A stretch of DNA of 64,000 nucleotides from Escherichia coli phage NG_S8. The position numbers were made by a program, and so were the translations under genes. How positions within the stretch are numbered: position 1 is the first letter of the stretch; every line of letters begins with the position of its first letter. Below are positions 28,687 to 49,351 of this stretch, piece by piece. The DNA is taken from the sequence record LC788711.1; one strand, 5' to 3'. The notes below the pieces were generated by a model. The model was given only the letters and a program-made list of their open reading frames with translations. It did no database searches and was not told the origin of the DNA.

Positions 28687-28854
28687 TTACTTATTACGCA
28701 TATCCATGATCATTTGACCATCGTAGCCAGTACCGACAACAGTCTGTGGTACACCACCTTGGTATTTTTCAGCACGAAGCATTTCAACTTCCAGCTGCTT
28801 CCAACGAATTACTTTTTGATCGGAAGTCAGTTCTTTAGTGTTTTTAGTAAACAT
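28687..28854 (-). CDS. small hypothetical protein (55 aa), below track threshold
   Basis: ATG with AAGGAA RBS. Confidence 0.35.
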   Translation of the reverse strand: MFTKNTKELTSDQKVIRWKQLEVEMLRAEKYQGGVPQTVVGTGYDGQMIMDMRNK

Positions 28855-29066: not shown

Positions 29067-29092
29067 TTTATTTTCCTAGCAGTTAATAAAAT

Positions 29093-29167
29093 TGGCCGAG
29101 GTGACAGGATTCGAACCTGCATAAAGGAATTTAGAAGACTCCTGCCTATCCCTTAGACTACACCCCG
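29093..29167 (-). tRNA. tRNA-Arg (TCT)
   Basis: CCA encoded; anticodon arm GGAGT-CTTCTAA-ATTCC; acceptor pairs with one G-U. Confidence 0.7.
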
Positions 29168-30281
29168 TTTAGGTATTTTTAAGAACTCTTATAAAAGCTC
29201 TTAAAGATACCCGACGATAGGTAGGGTCAGCCCCCTCAGATTAAGCTCTGCAGCCCTTCCGTCAGACAATATCTTCCAGTTTAAGTCAGGGTGACTTTGT
29301 GGTTATGCCCTTCGTATGTGAAAGACTCGGTTAGGCTTAGGTCATGACTCCCAGCCTACTGCTGCTCCTCAACAGGAATTATCGCGTTTACCTGTACTAT
29401 TGTGCACCATTAGTGGCATCTCTCATGCCAGCATTTCCCACTCTCATAGTTACGCGGTCTGTTAGAATCGCACCTCCGATTTTCGATGCGAAGCTGGATG
29501 CCTAGTCTCAGGTTAAACGGGGCACACACTAGGCAGTGATCCCGAGTTCCGAGTTTGGTTGAGGCCGTCAGGTTTCCTCGTGGTTTAGCTGTTTCGCCCT
29601 AAACAATTCCTGCAACATTAAGGATGCAGGGGGATAGGTGGTACTCCAGCAGCGAGTGCTTATCCGGTATAAGCCCGAGTTATCCGATTCTTTCCGACCG
29701 TAGGATTCGAACCTACATCTTCCACCAGTTGCGGCTTGATATTACCGTTTATACTAGGACGGCAGTGTTATCGCATAAGTCAGTTCGACACCCCACATTG
29801 TGACTGGTAAGTCCCCCAATGAAGCCATCAGTCGTTAGACCTCCATCATTCATTAAAAACTTACGCTATTCACTATTCGATGGACAATCGCCGCATTGTG
29901 GTATACATACGTCTTGACTTGCATCCTAGACGGGTCAGCGTTGAAAGTTATATGGATTTCTCAAGCCCAACCTTCAGTCTTCTACCCCTGGGACACGCAC
30001 CGTACTTCACACTATGCCTAGCTCATGTTGAGAACCATCGTTTTGTATAAATTAGAGAAGAGTTTACGAGGTTTCGGGACAGCTCCCGAATTTTACAAGA
30101 CGTCTCGAATCTGACCGCAAAGTCGGCTCATTGGCCGGATATACCGGACTAGGCGTCATAAGTCTCACAGATGATCTTTCTTAACTCACCGACTCTATTC
30201 AGTGGAGTAGCTATCTCGGCATCCGAGAATCACTAAACTCACTCAGCGTAATCGGCTCGCTGTTCTCTAATTTATGAATCT
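29168..30281 (-). ncRNA. candidate large non-coding RNA / long ORF-free transcribed region
   Basis: about 1.1 kb with no ORF of 60 aa or more on either strand; promoter at 30282-30310; several local hairpins; embedded tRNA-like hairpin. Confidence 0.35.
29692..29767 (-). ncRNA. degenerate tRNA-like element (T-arm only)
   Basis: T-arm gtagg-attcgaa-cctac at 29700-29716; no complementary 5-prime acceptor strand. Confidence 0.3.
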
Positions 30282-30310
30282 ATTATACAGAATTTTGAAG
30301 CGTTTAGCAA
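30282..30310 (-). promoter_or_regulatory. T5-type early promoter driving the ORF-free region
   Basis: attata 30282-30287, tagcaa 30305-30310. Confidence 0.6.
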
Positions 30311-30318
30311 ATCAATTT

Positions 30319-30762
30319 TTAATTAAATTCGCCAGCAACCTGAGCAGCGATGCCACCGTCATAACGACCAGGGAATTCTTCCTTAATCGCTTTCATCAGC
30401 ATACCTTTTGTAATCCCAGGGTTCAACTTAACTAATTCTGCAAAGTATTTGCGAATCTCAGAATCAGAAAGCTGAGGAGGCAGATACTGTTGTAACCATT
30501 TGTTCAGTATATATTCATACTGAGCAGACTGCAAGCTATAATTATCAAGGTCTTGACCATGAAGTTTAGCTTTCGTCTGATTAATGCTTTTCAGTTGAGC
30601 TTTTAGATAAGATACAAACTGCTCAGAAGTAATGAAGTCTTTATCAACACGCTGAAGATCTCCGATTATGGTCTGATAGCTTTTAGCTACTTCTTTATCA
30701 GAACCATCAACCTTAGATTCCTGCAAAGCCCTACGCAAAACATCTAGAATATTCTCTTCCAT
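30319..30762 (-). CDS. GatB/YqeY-domain protein (147 aa)
   Basis: C-terminal pattern YLPPQLS...GITKGMLMKAIKEEFPGRYDGG resembles YqeY family. Confidence 0.55.
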   Translation of the reverse strand: MEENILDVLRRALQESKVDGSDKEVAKSYQTIIGDLQRVDKDFITSEQFVSYLKAQLKSINQTKAKLHGQDLDNYSLQSAQYEYILNKWLQQYLPPQLSDSEIRKYFAELVKLNPGITKGMLMKAIKEEFPGRYDGGIAAQVAGEFN

Positions 30763-31000: not shown

Positions 31001-31468
31001 TTAAGTTTTCTTAACCACAGGCTTGTAGAACGTATGGCCTTGAATCTTCGTTGTTTTCTTAAACTTCTTTGTCCAGTACGGTTTATCTTTACCACTATGG
31101 AAGTATAACGCTCCATGTGTTGGATCTTGTGGTAAATCAACGTAGTATATCACTCTAGCTAAATTCTTAGCAACTTGCCAAGCCTCATCGGTTTTATCAA
31201 CTTTTGGTCTCTTGGCCACCCAAGAGAACTGGTTAGACTGATATACTACTTTACAGTAAGAATCAGGAAAAGTACCAGAGTTAACACGGTTTTTAGTAAC
31301 CTGTGCAACTGCGATCATTCCTTTAGTGCCCTCACCTCGTGCTTCGAAGTAGATATTTTTTGCAATGCAATCAATCTGCTTTGAGTCGTAGGTCGCATGA
31401 CTATTGAAGCTATAGGTTAGGGCAGCTATTAAAAGCAAAGCTGCCTTCATTTTATTTACTCCGGCCAA
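31001..31468 (-). CDS. SleB-like cell wall hydrolase with signal peptide (155 aa)
   Basis: motif NIYFEARGE...AVAQVTKNR. Confidence 0.55.
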   Translation of the reverse strand: MAGVNKMKAALLLIAALTYSFNSHATYDSKQIDCIAKNIYFEARGEGTKGMIAVAQVTKNRVNSGTFPDSYCKVVYQSNQFSWVAKRPKVDKTDEAWQVAKNLARVIYYVDLPQDPTHGALYFHSGKDKPYWTKKFKKTTKIQGHTFYKPVVKKT

Positions 31469-31773
31469 TCGTACTCAATACGATTAGGGCTTTCTTGATA
31501 CCCTTCGTCTAAGAGATCATTACGCATGGTCTCTTTAGCTACTGGGTTCGAGGTTACTAGTACCACTTTCTTGGGTCTCTGACCAAATTCTAGGAGTAAA
31601 CGAAGAATTTGATAACCTTCCATACCATCTACAGCCAGATCGTTATCCATATAAACGAAATGACCTGTGGTATCGGTTTTATTCAGAAACTCAACAGCGG
31701 CTTCGGGGGTTCGAATGATAATGTCCATTCCATGAAGGTTACGCACATCATCAATCAGAATATGAAAAATCAT
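31456..31773 (-). CDS. stand-alone receiver-domain-like protein (105 aa), tentative
   Basis: ILIDDV...YMDNDLAVDGMEGYQILRLL resembles a CheY-like acidic pocket. Confidence 0.35.
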   Translation of the reverse strand: MIFHILIDDVRNLHGMDIIIRTPEAAVEFLNKTDTTGHFVYMDNDLAVDGMEGYQILRLLLEFGQRPKKVVLVTSNPVAKETMRNDLLDEGYQESPNRIEYDWPE

Positions 31774-31803
31774 AATAGCCTCGTCTCATCAATTTAAAAA
31801 TAT

Positions 31804-31832
31804 ATTATACAGAAAACTAAACTAATTAGCAA
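31804..31832 (-). promoter_or_regulatory. T5-type early promoter
   Basis: attata 31804-31809, tagcaa 31827-31832. Confidence 0.6.
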
Positions 31833-32216
31833 ATACATTTTTAAATTGAGAGACTAGTAAACCGATAAACAGCCTAGAGGCGCCACAGGCCATATCTTAT
31901 GAGCCATGTACCTTTGATCTAGGGTTTGAATCATCAACGAATACTTTGCATCTTTTAGCTTTAGAAGGTTAGAAGTTTGAGTGCTTTTAACTTTTCAGCT
32001 TTCATACTTGAGCGTTGATCTTTGAAGTTGTGTTGGTACTACCAACGACCTTTTGTTTTTACGTGTCAGATTAAATGTCTGATGTAATAAACATAATCTC
32101 CAATAGATTATACTTTATAGTATGGTCAGCGGTCTTATTTAACCTCGTATTTCAACCGCTGCTGCGAGGTAAGATGCTTGGGCTTTCGTCTACCGATTTA
32201 CTAGTCTTTTAAATTA

Positions 32217-43254: not shown

Positions 43255-43318
43255 TCCTATAGTGTACTTCGCTAACAGAGGATCAACAAAAAGATCTTGT
43301 TTATCAACTTACAAATAT

Positions 43319-43347
43319 ATTATACCAATATATACGGGAGAAAGCAA
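43319..43347 (-). promoter_or_regulatory. T5-type early promoter for phoH (divergent region)
   Basis: attata 43319-43324, aagcaa 43342-43347. Confidence 0.6.
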
Positions 43348-43539
43348 CTACAATTTTAAATAAGCCTATGATATTGCATTTAAATAAAAAATTTGCTTGC
43401 TTTTATTGGGAGATGTATGGTACTAGATAATCATTTTATATCGCGTACACGGGTGCGTGATTATACTATTTTTAGTAGAGGTTGGCAAATAAAATTTTTT
43501 GACTCAGATCATGTTACAGAACTTTATAGTAAAATATTG

Positions 43540-43568
43540 TTGACATCCGCCTTCGAATGAGTTATAAT
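43540..43568 (+). promoter_or_regulatory. sigma70 consensus promoter for nrdD
   Basis: TTGACA 43540-43545, 17-bp spacer, TATAAT 43563-43568; possible second promoter about 40 bp upstream. Confidence 0.65.
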
Positions 43569-43597
43569 AGTAGTCTTAGTTAGAGAAGGAGGGTATA

Positions 43598-48735: not shown

Positions 48736-48826
48736 TTTTCATTAGCCCAATCCTGATTACCGAGTCATTTTGGCTCGGTTTTCTCTGTGCTCAAAGACAC
48801 TGATAGCACCTTCGGAAAAATTTTAC

Positions 48827-48855
48827 TTGCAGGATGCTCAAAATCTTGATATAAT
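48827..48855 (+). promoter_or_regulatory. T5-type early promoter with long leader
   Basis: TTGCAG 48827-48832, TATAAT 48850-48855; no start codon for about 500 nt. Confidence 0.55.
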
Positions 48856-49351
48856 ATTTATATTGAATTGAGAGACATTAGTAAAAATTGATTTTGCTAA
48901 TTTTTCTTGTTTACAATCCGCAATACGGAACAGTTAGGCTGCCCCATTAAGGGTTGTTTTAACTATTACTAGTGTTTATACTGCATTAGTTAATTATCAA
49001 TTAAGTGATCTGCGTACCCTGAATTCGGAAAGGTAAATCCAAACCGTGCATATTTAGCTCGTTATATAGGCAGAGCTTTATATGGGGGTGCGAACGAAAA
49101 GAGCAGCGAATGGTGACACGTCCAGTAGCCACCTACCAATAGGATAGTGAGGGCAATCAGAATCGGCTTAGCGGCCAATGACCTAGGTTCTGATCTGGAT
49201 AAGAGTTAAGAGAGCGCAGCACTGAGGTATGATAACTTATTCATACTGCTTGATGGTGATTAATGTTTGTGTAAATGGTAGTAATAGTTGTTCTATTCTT
49301 TTGAATAGTCCTAAAGAAAGATATCCGAATAACCAACATAGGAGTATTGTT

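Follow-up and report, generated by a model that had tools for sequence, protein, structure and literature searches.

The locus at the head of the tRNA cluster

Within the 64,000 nucleotides (nt) of Escherichia coli phage NG_S8 that were analyzed (LC788711.1; hereafter, the window), whose closest record is Salmonella phage STWB21 (Epseptimavirus; 97.8% identity across the stretch used as the query), 29 tRNA genes form a cluster on the minus strand, all of them co-oriented (ARAGORN). At the promoter-proximal end of this cluster, between an early promoter and the gene for tRNA-Arg(UCU), lies an element of ~1.1 kb (30275-29172), which is probably the gene for a large, multidomain structured noncoding RNA of T5-like phages (Demerecviridae). 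An earlier note, made from the sequence alone, had placed an undescribed large structured RNA here, a proposal supported by the conservation, the covariation and the absence of an Rfam match reported below.

As that note had stated, no open reading frame (ORF) of at least 60 amino acids (aa) is present at 29168-30281: the longest in any frame has 59 aa, and the minus (transcribed) strand of this region contains zero ORFs of at least 40 aa. When the entire window was scanned, 29067-30318 (1252 nt) turned out to be its longest stretch without ORFs of at least 60 aa. Since 225 of 2000 composition-matched shuffles of the region (11%) likewise contained no such ORF, this absence is, on its own, weak evidence. 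The guanine-plus-cytosine (GC) content of the element is 45 to 52%, versus ~35 to 40% in the coding flanks, and is close to that of tRNA genes. The local hairpins quoted in the earlier note are all present in the sequence (~30136-30148, 29660-29676, and 29611-29632), and no second copy of the element was detected in the window by nhmmer. Further stretches of 340 to 490 nt without ORFs of at least 60 aa (31798-32216, 43255-43597, and 48736-49228) were found, outside all 29 tRNA genes.

The T5-type promoter said to point into the region was confirmed by its consensus, with 10 of 12 positions matching. Together with the CAUAAAUUAGAGA that follows, it is nearly identical to the strong T5 early promoter PN25 with its initial transcribed sequence; by analogy with PN25, transcription would start at about position 30275. 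The promoter and a start motif, CATAAATTA, are found upstream of the element in 69 of the 69 homologous loci having both ends, and the TTGCTA/TATAAT pair was seen in Proteus phage 2 as well. The element always begins at the start sequence of its promoter, and this sequence is itself paired, in the helix P1 described below. At the opposite boundary, a terminal 18-base-pair (bp) hairpin, not followed by a U run, ends the element in every lineage but Novosibvirus, and the co-oriented tRNA-Arg(UCU) gene lies 4 to 5 nt 3' of it. On the minus strand, the first intrinsic-terminator-like site downstream is located at 28663-28633, past tRNA-Arg(UCU) and two short ORFs, in keeping with the earlier suggestion that the transcript would continue into the tRNA.

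The terminal hairpin is always the last part of the element, whether it is tRNA-Arg or an inserted ORF that comes next. A single ORF separates the hairpin from tRNA-Arg in STWB21, Enterobacter phage KKP_3711, phiR2-01, and My1, and two ORFs do so in Sugarlandvirus. Because the element keeps the same two ends despite these inserted ORFs, we argue that it is a unit of its own and not a leader tuned to the tRNA. The extra ORFs, of 158 to 181 aa, are located exactly between the terminal hairpin and tRNA-Arg (locus L001, 1577-2086; L040, 441-917; L076, 5200-5745; L006, ~960-1500); that of My1 gave weak matches to homing-endonuclease families in PHROG, and those of STWB21 and KKP_3711 match no family.

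A blastn search found the region in 527 phage records. The element is kept in more than 500 T5-like genomes, belonging to Tequintavirus, Epseptimavirus, Sugarlandvirus, Hongcheonvirus, Myunavirus, and Novosibvirus; its conservation spans at least four deep lineages of Demerecviridae. The Klebsiella phages of Sugarlandvirus show ~70 to 75% identity across ~1.3 kb; Pectobacterium phages DU_PP_V and My1 (Mccorquodalevirinae) carry a syntenic noncoding stretch of ~1 kb with the same motifs; and the Proteus phages of Novosibvirus have a rearranged version of ~0.8 kb, located between tRNA-Arg and the gene for a YqeY-like protein. The order YqeY-like gene, element, tRNA-Arg is kept from Markadamsvirinae to Novosibvirus. 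In Vibrio phage Thalassa (Ermolyevavirinae), the YqeY-like gene is present, and inspection of the site next to it revealed no element.

With the promoter start motif and the terminal hairpin as bounds, 46 distinct elements were taken from 69 loci. Their lengths fall into classes of 640, 723 (T5), ~790 to 805, 830 to 950, 987 to 1107 (1105 in the window), and 1250 to 1296 nt. Absence from close T5 relatives as a simple indel had been named in the earlier note as a possible sign against a functional RNA. Such loss does affect the promoter-proximal part: these ~470 nt are complete, partial or absent among the homologs, and in T5 and the 640-nt class ~30260-29800 is missing, the 5' domain there being a plain hairpin. 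The 3' ~640 nt, however, is retained in every homolog examined from Markadamsvirinae, Sugarlandvirus, and Mccorquodalevirinae. The evolution of the element is modular, with peripheral domains gained and lost around a conserved 3' core.

Outside this group of phages, searches returned next to nothing. A host origin was not indicated, as blastn against 5,426 complete E. coli genomes gave no match; a search of plasmids gave only one chance match of 45 nt; and a metagenome scan with the terminal-hairpin motif yielded seven close relatives and nothing else. Similarly, scans of IMG/VR with two motifs returned T5-like genomes only. Among 185,579 bacterial and archaeal species genomes, the 5'-hairpin motif matched 49 times, versus ~35 matches expected by chance according to our own estimate, and none of these matches could be extended past the seed with nhmmer. 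Existing annotation in the blastn records contains almost nothing convincing: there is none, or there are scattered short hypothetical ORFs on either strand, or the cloverleaf described below is labeled "tRNA-OTHER," "tRNA-Sec," or pseudo. The T5 reference record marks a pseudo-tRNA alone at the homologous site. In the published literature that we searched, no description of this RNA was found.

Covariation and domain architecture

The compensatory changes that the earlier note had proposed to look for across T5-like genomes were found, along with strong conservation. For the whole element, RNAalifold returned 281 consensus pairs from 11 full-length sequences, with 93% of the cells paired and 88 pairs changed on both sides; in controls in which the 3' partners were slid by 1 to 3 columns, 38 to 41% of the cells were paired and 17 to 23 pairs were changed on both sides. 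The separate domains gave the same picture. In the 5' domain (alignment A2; 15 sequences from five lineages), 95.4% of the cells are paired and 14 of the 25 pairs are changed on both sides (slid controls, 3 to 7), a result reached by 0 of 500 shuffles; in the core domain (alignment A1; 19 sequences), the values are 98.4% and 15 of 27 (slid controls, at most 4), again with 0 of 500 shuffles. RNAalifold consensus structures of domain 2 (14 sequences) and of the 3' region with domain 6 (39 sequences) are each 90% paired, with 21 (slid controls, 2 to 6) and 33 (slid controls, 11 to 17) pairs changed on both sides, respectively. Of a further alignment, A3, only the terminal part was used, as MAFFT had misaligned the Klebsiella sequences in the 3' region. 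The same helices have been rewritten independently in Sugarlandvirus, Mccorquodalevirinae, Novosibvirus, and KKP_3711, and, judging from the alignments, they are under selection across genera at 70% sequence identity.

Within the element, substitutions are spread evenly over positions modulo three (51:43:37, 70:72:56, 112:113:112, and 71:70:66), and many of the indels are of 1, 2, and 4 nt, i.e., not multiples of three. For the adjacent YqeY-like gene, comparison with Eps7 and TrudiGerster gave 14:2:0 and 58:19:10 over the codon positions and zero indels. A conserved small ORF, the coding alternative raised in the earlier note, was not found: there is no codon periodicity, and frame-breaking indels are frequent. 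Some depositors did annotate short ORFs here (in TrudiGerster, Sugarland, and K7_rec20), and these annotations disagree in place and strand.

As to the sense of the RNA, the minus strand is favored by the orientation of the promoter, by G-U pairs, by the excess of G-U over A-C, and by folding z-scores. In the terminal hairpin, two G-U pairs are conserved, which on the opposite strand would turn into C-A mismatches, and a consensus restricted to Watson-Crick pairs has 75 G-U cells versus 46 A-C cells. For the 3' 636 nt, the folding z-score is -2.6 in the RNA sense and +0.2 on the opposite strand. These thermodynamic scores are not decisive; the folding energy of the single sequence is mildly unusual, and the case therefore rests on the comparative evidence and not on hairpins as such.

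The features of the locus are as follows, in the order of transcription.

30310-30282, minus: sigma-70 early promoter of the T5 N25 type, TTGCTA-17-TATAAT (consensus scan)
30275-30047, minus: domain 1, the 5' domain (alignment A2)
30275-30263 with 30059-30047, minus: P1, the 13-bp helix closing domain 1 (first 13 transcribed bases, perfect pairing)
30262-30258 with 30248-30244, minus: P2, a hairpin with a 9-nt loop (A2)
30256-30252 with 30192-30188, minus: pseudoknot of 5 bases involving the P2 loop (A2)
30046-29797, minus: domain 2, optional and multihelix (RNAalifold)
29796-29580, minus: domain 3, the core (alignment A1)
29796-29793 with 29583-29580, minus: helix closing the core, GUGG/CCAC (compensated in relatives)
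29783-29770 with 29688-29675, minus: 12-bp core helix (A1)
29763-29692, minus: tRNA-like module capping the 12-bp helix (Rfam tRNA model, RF00005)
29674-29658, minus: core hairpin (A1)
~29650-29588, minus: variable core hairpin (A1)
29579-29445, minus: domain 5, variable, in clade-specific versions, with a conserved hairpin, GCAUCGAAAAUCGGAGGUGC (alignment and RNAalifold)
29441-29299, minus: domain 6, closed by GUGG (29441-29438) with CCAC (29302-29299) (RNAalifold)
29297-29212, minus: domain 7, with hairpin AGUCACCCUGACU (29297-29283), conserved strands UAAACUGGAA and CUUAAU, and small covarying hairpins (alignments)
29211-29172, minus: terminal 18-bp hairpin (near-invariant sequence; compensated in KKP_3711)
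29167-29093, minus: tRNA-Arg(UCU) gene, outside the RNA (ARAGORN; Rfam tRNA model, 49.3 bits)

Both strands of P1 have been rewritten, and are still paired, in DU_PP_V, My1, and the Proteus phage; in T5, all that is left of domain 1 is the P1 hairpin, which has a 7-nt loop. P2 and the pseudoknot show one compensated position each. Since it is the same three sequences (DU_PP_V, My1, and Proteus phage 2) that carry both changes, the support for these two pairings amounts to at most two or three events. Domain 1 additionally contains variable hairpins and the invariant junction strands UGAAUAGAGUCGGUGAGUU and GUAAACUCUUCUC. At 30089-30074 and the homologous positions, close relatives bear either of two hairpin cassettes, UUCGGGAGCUGUCCCGAA or GAGGCGUCUGAAACCUC, at the same place, and comparable cassette swaps are seen in domain 5; such alternative cassettes indicate recombinational shuffling of whole hairpins between coinfecting relatives. 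A second candidate pseudoknot, in which CCGAUU of the 5' hairpin loop would pair with AAUCGG of the core, was rejected, because the core strand varies without compensation as read from the alignments. Domain 2 is present in 15 of the 46 unique homologs, and one of its subhairpins (~29870-29800) is itself present or absent among relatives.

In the core, the closing helix is compensated in KKP_3711 (AUGG/CCAU), DU_PP_V (ACGG/CCGU), and the Proteus phage (AUGGGU/ACCCAU), and the 12-bp helix has eight covarying positions with a single unpaired cell across the 19 sequences. What caps this helix had been described in the earlier note as a lone T-arm (29700-29716) without an acceptor partner. That description needs correction, as the arm belongs to a complete but defective cloverleaf (29692-29763), with a canonical T-arm containing GGUUCGAAUCC, a D-arm with GG, a 7-bp acceptor-like stem that has two mismatches here and is perfect in T5, and no encoded CCA. 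Its "anticodon" arm is shortened to 3 to 4 bp and has a conserved 6-nt loop, G(Y)AACU, identified by eye (this region is unaligned in the covariance-model alignment). RF00005 scores the module at 29.3 bits in the window, which is borderline to the gathering score of 29, and at 38.3 bits in T5 and DU_PP_V and 30.1 bits in KKP_3711; no match to this model was detected in the Sugarland locus. ARAGORN makes no call on the module here and calls it Ser(act), Ser(cga), or Leu(tag) in relatives. Neither a canonical anticodon arm nor a consistent isoacceptor identity was found among the orthologs, and elements of the Eps7 type and of Novosibvirus have a plain hairpin in its place. Because of the shortened arm, the inconsistent identities and these replacements, we regard the module as structural, not as a decoding tRNA, and as dispensable.

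Downstream of the core, the variability of domain 5 leaves just 15 consensus pairs that can be aligned across clades, 94% paired and with 6 changed on both sides. The closing helix of domain 6 is compensated in DU_PP_V (AUGG/CCGU), and one of its hairpin loops presents a near-invariant motif, GGAGUCAUGACC (29351-29340), which does not differ among Markadamsvirinae, Sugarlandvirus, and DU_PP_V, is altered by a single change in My1, and contains the 8-nt self-complementary sequence GUCAUGAC (29348-29341). Novosibvirus elements (L077, 3966-4724; L081; L082) contain the 5'-domain motifs and the core helix without the tRNA-like module; in them, the GUCAUGAC hairpin is positioned 5' of the core rather than 3', and a separate T-arm-like hairpin (CUGGGUUCAACUCCCAG) lies further upstream. 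In the 3' region, T5 (L004, at the homolog of ~29297-29275) and a metagenomic relative (L071) carry an insertion of ~82 nt flanked by a direct duplication of ~23 nt (AGUCACCUUGACUUAAACUGGAA), which looks like the footprint of an insertion or of slipped recombination.

Known RNA families and neighboring genes

The search with Rfam covariance models, including those of the ROOL, GOLLD, and HEARO type, that the earlier note had recommended was performed with cmscan and all 4227 families of Rfam 15, on 29150-30320 (E ≤ 10), on six homologous loci (E ≤ 5) and on the core alone. None of these scans returned a match other than that of tRNA to the cloverleaf, so that "undescribed" holds as far as Rfam 15 and the literature show. 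The RNA is therefore not GOLLD, ROOL, OLE, raiA, or HEARO as modeled there. Likewise, no Rfam match was obtained for group I or II introns, RNase P RNA, transfer-messenger RNA (tmRNA), riboswitches, or self-cleaving ribozymes, and ARAGORN reported no tmRNA. Seen against the operational definition of large ornate RNAs, the element measures 640 to 1296 nt, is noncoding, and has 281 pairs (88 of them changed on both sides), a compensated pseudoknot and compensated domain-closing helices. Its resemblance to the large ornate RNAs of phages is one of analogy, not of homology.

GOLLD RNAs exceed 800 nt, are encoded by phages or prophages, often next to tRNA islands, and combine a conserved 3' region with a variable 5' region, kissing loops and pseudoknots; ROOL RNAs are also encoded by phages or prophages, often near tRNA islands, and have pseudoknots and no known protein partner. 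For GOLLD as for ROOL, RNA-only cages held together by kissing loops have been reported (PMC12286853). The T5-type element shares with GOLLD its size class, its phage origin, its position at a tRNA island and a conserved 3' core with a variable 5' part. The two differ in that no covariance-model match provides evidence of homology, in that the hosts of the T5-type element are virulent phages of enterobacteria whereas GOLLD elements are of Lactobacillales, mycobacterial or marine origin, and in that the T5-type element has an internal tRNA-like module and starts exactly at an early promoter of a mapped type. ROOL RNAs, at ~500 to 600 nt, are smaller than the element, which also has another domain organization and gave no match to the ROOL model. 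The GUCAUGAC loop is the sole hint, taken from the sequence, of a possible homo-oligomeric assembly as shown for GOLLD, ROOL, and OLE.

A tRNA-like module on a long stem is also known from the bacterial Y RNA YrlA, in which it displays conserved features of the T- and D-arms; a Y RNA of Mycobacterium smegmatis is cut by RNase P and gains CCA (PMC4201824). In YrlA, this domain, borne on a Ro-binding stem, is permuted to the order T arm, closed "acceptor" hairpin, D arm, with the stem entering at the anticodon position (PMC4201824). The T5-type core helix similarly carries a tRNA-like module. YrlA differs in being ~100 to 150 nt long and adjoining a Ro60/TROVE gene, and no TROVE protein was found among the six ORFs of the window that were scanned against Pfam. 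Identity with YrlA or Y RNAs was rejected on topology, as the arms of the present cloverleaf keep their usual order and it is the acceptor stem that opens into the 12-bp helix. Just 5' of that helix, GUCGAA (29789-29784, minus strand) resembles the Ro60-binding motif GNCGAA(N0-1)G, although the next bases are CU and not G; T5-type elements have GUGGAA in its place. Given this replacement and the different topology of the tRNA-like fold, the likeness is probably a coincidence.

Two more distant parallels concern the 3' end and the setting. In the eukaryotic long noncoding RNAs MALAT1 and MEN-beta (mascRNA), RNase P generates the 3' end by cutting at a tRNA-like structure farther downstream, and the new end is shielded by a terminal structure; comparably, the terminal 18-bp hairpin of the element stands 4 to 5 nt before a real tRNA. 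The analogy is one of mechanism only, the cleavage being presumed for the element, and several relatives have an ORF between hairpin and tRNA. The tRNA cluster of T4 encodes the stable RNAs species 1 and 2 (rnaC/rnaD), which are not tRNAs, are cotranscribed with the cluster, are processed by the tRNA machinery and measure ~120 to 140 nt. They, too, are phage-encoded non-tRNA RNAs embedded in a tRNA cluster, and the T5-type element differs from them in its size of 0.6 to 1.3 kb.

Upstream of the element, the minus strand encodes the YqeY-like protein of 147 aa (30319-30762), which scores 25.4 bits in Pfam (cutoff, 27) and 158 bits with the PHROG family "tRNA amidotransferase," and a protein of 105 aa (31456-31773) with a cREC_REC (cyclic-phosphate processing receiver) domain (55 bits). 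GenBank names for the YqeY-like gene are inconsistent, often reading "recombination-related exonuclease." Loosely, these upstream neighbors hint at tRNA and RNA-end biology. The idea that the YqeY-like protein is an obligatory partner of the RNA is weakened by Sugarlandvirus, which has the element and no tblastn match to the protein, and by Vibrio phages, which have the protein without an adjacent element. On the other side of tRNA-Arg, an ORF of 55 aa (28687-28854, minus strand) matches only the C-terminal end (318-361 of 379) of a PHROG lipoprotein family. It has the appearance of what remains after truncation of the band-7/lipoprotein gene of ~945 bp that is found at full length 3' of tRNA-Arg in T5, Eps7, and STWB21.

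Interpretation, alternatives, and significance

That the element specifies a functional structured RNA can be stated with high confidence. Whether this RNA is a discrete molecule that acts in trans, and not a leader only, is a narrower matter, on which we lean toward the former. A leader in cis would be a structured processing scaffold, degraded after it has controlled the synthesis, the RNase P or RNase E processing or the stability of tRNA-Arg(UCU) and the small ORFs. It would explain why this tRNA gene always follows the element in the same orientation, with no terminator between them, and why the three-part synteny has been kept from Markadamsvirinae to Novosibvirus. At 0.64 to 1.3 kb and more than 250 conserved pairs, however, the element is far past any known tRNA leader; the sequence next to the terminal hairpin is variable (tRNA-Arg, one ORF, or the two ORFs of Sugarlandvirus) although the boundaries of the element are fixed; and no leader of this kind precedes any of the other 28 tRNA genes in the cluster. 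On balance, a mere leader appears unlikely. The element might also work as DNA or as an R-loop, i.e., as an origin primed by a structured transcript, in the manner of ColE1 RNA II, T7, or T4, or as a single-strand initiation signal with DNA hairpins. A strong promoter directed into noncoding DNA is typical of phage origins; to our knowledge, the origins of T5 have never been mapped at the sequence level; and covariation in hairpins alone cannot separate RNA from single-stranded DNA of the same sense. We nevertheless consider this very improbable, since the cumulative GC skew has no inflection at the site, the promoter-proximal half can be lost, and the long-range helices, the pseudoknot and the tRNA-like fold with its T-loop typify the tertiary architecture of RNA and not origins. 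Moreover, reading through the sequence, to which repeat finders were not applied, brought to notice neither iterons nor an AT-rich unwinding element.

Two further explanations were considered. The region could consist of decayed tRNA genes or of neutral spacer in a recombination-prone tRNA island, to which the pseudo-tRNA in the middle of the element, the tRNA-like GC content and the mosaic nature of the region, with its frequent gain and loss of modules, would be suited. Yet only 72 of ~1100 nt match the tRNA model, even at E ≤ 10, helices are maintained by compensation across genera at 70% identity, unlike in neutral decay, and unpaired motifs are invariant from Salmonella to Pectobacterium phages, so that we give this explanation hardly any weight. 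Even less is to be said for one or more small proteins missed by the 60-aa cutoff. The short hypothetical ORFs in the TrudiGerster, Sugarland, and K7_rec20 records are in its favor; these ORFs differ by position and strand, however, the sense strand is without ORFs of at least 40 aa, and the absence of a third-position bias and the frame-breaking indels argue against coding.

To the full reading, that of a gene for a large multidomain RNA (~1.1 kb here and 0.64 to 1.3 kb in relatives) that would be transcribed early, released by RNase P, stable and active in trans, we assign a probability of about 0.68. Several points count against it. The folding z-score of the 5' 488 nt is -0.3, no better than that of shuffles. 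The sequences represent about five or six independent clades, and many changes on both sides descend from few events; the cell counts therefore overstate the number of events. Natural elements can do without the 5' half, which T5 and the 640-nt class lack, and without the tRNA-like module, which is missing from Eps7-type and Novosibvirus elements. Binding of a protein would account equally well for the self-complementary loop. With ORFs intervening in relatives, RNase P cleavage at tRNA-Arg cannot be the sole or universal route to the 3' end, and transcription, processing sites, stability and action in trans are all inferred.

According to the proposed mechanism, the RNA would be made early in infection, as the first part of a transcript that runs on into tRNA-Arg(UCU). 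A cut by RNase P at the 5' end of this tRNA, 4 to 5 nt past the terminal hairpin, would yield the 3' end of the RNA, and the tRNA-like module might be a second RNase P site. With its 5' triphosphate end held in P1 and its 3' end in the 18-bp hairpin, the RNA would be expected for that reason to resist both 5'-end-dependent and 3'-exonucleolytic decay and to accumulate. It would then act in trans as a scaffold or decoy, as proposed for GOLLD and ROOL. It may self-associate through the invariant self-complementary loop, and its tRNA-like module may engage tRNA-binding proteins in a phage-host conflict over tRNA or RNA damage. Any specific role, such as that of a decoy or of a multimer, is tentative at best. 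More speculative still, and in our estimate doubtful, is an abundant early RNA machine of ~1 kb, a higher-order particle composed of RNA only or including the YqeY-like tRNA-binding-domain protein, that captures or misleads host tRNA-directed enzymes, e.g., anticodon nucleases and RNA-repair or RNA-decay factors. If this were true, the RNA would be an RNA-based counterdefense or takeover device in a classic model phage.

We rate the element as a new RNA family within a known kind, that of large structured phage RNAs in tRNA islands, with features of its own: the tRNA-like module inside it, a 5' end that is engaged in pairing from its first nucleotide on, and a direct connection with both a strong early promoter and a tRNA gene. 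T5 has served as a model phage for seventy years, and few coliphages and Salmonella phages are isolated or used in therapy as commonly as those of the T5-like group; about 1% of the genome, behind one of the strongest promoter types, has been annotated as nothing or as spurious short ORFs. Annotators should drop the ORF and "tRNA-Sec/tRNA-OTHER" calls in this region. If the RNA is real, it would be a third family of large ornate phage RNAs of tRNA islands, beside GOLLD and ROOL, and one found in a virulent E. coli K-12 phage that is amenable to genetics. The long-standing question of their function could then be put to a direct test, with the natural variants, i.e., elements with and without the 5' domains, with and without the tRNA-like module and with alternative hairpin cassettes, serving as a dissection kit.

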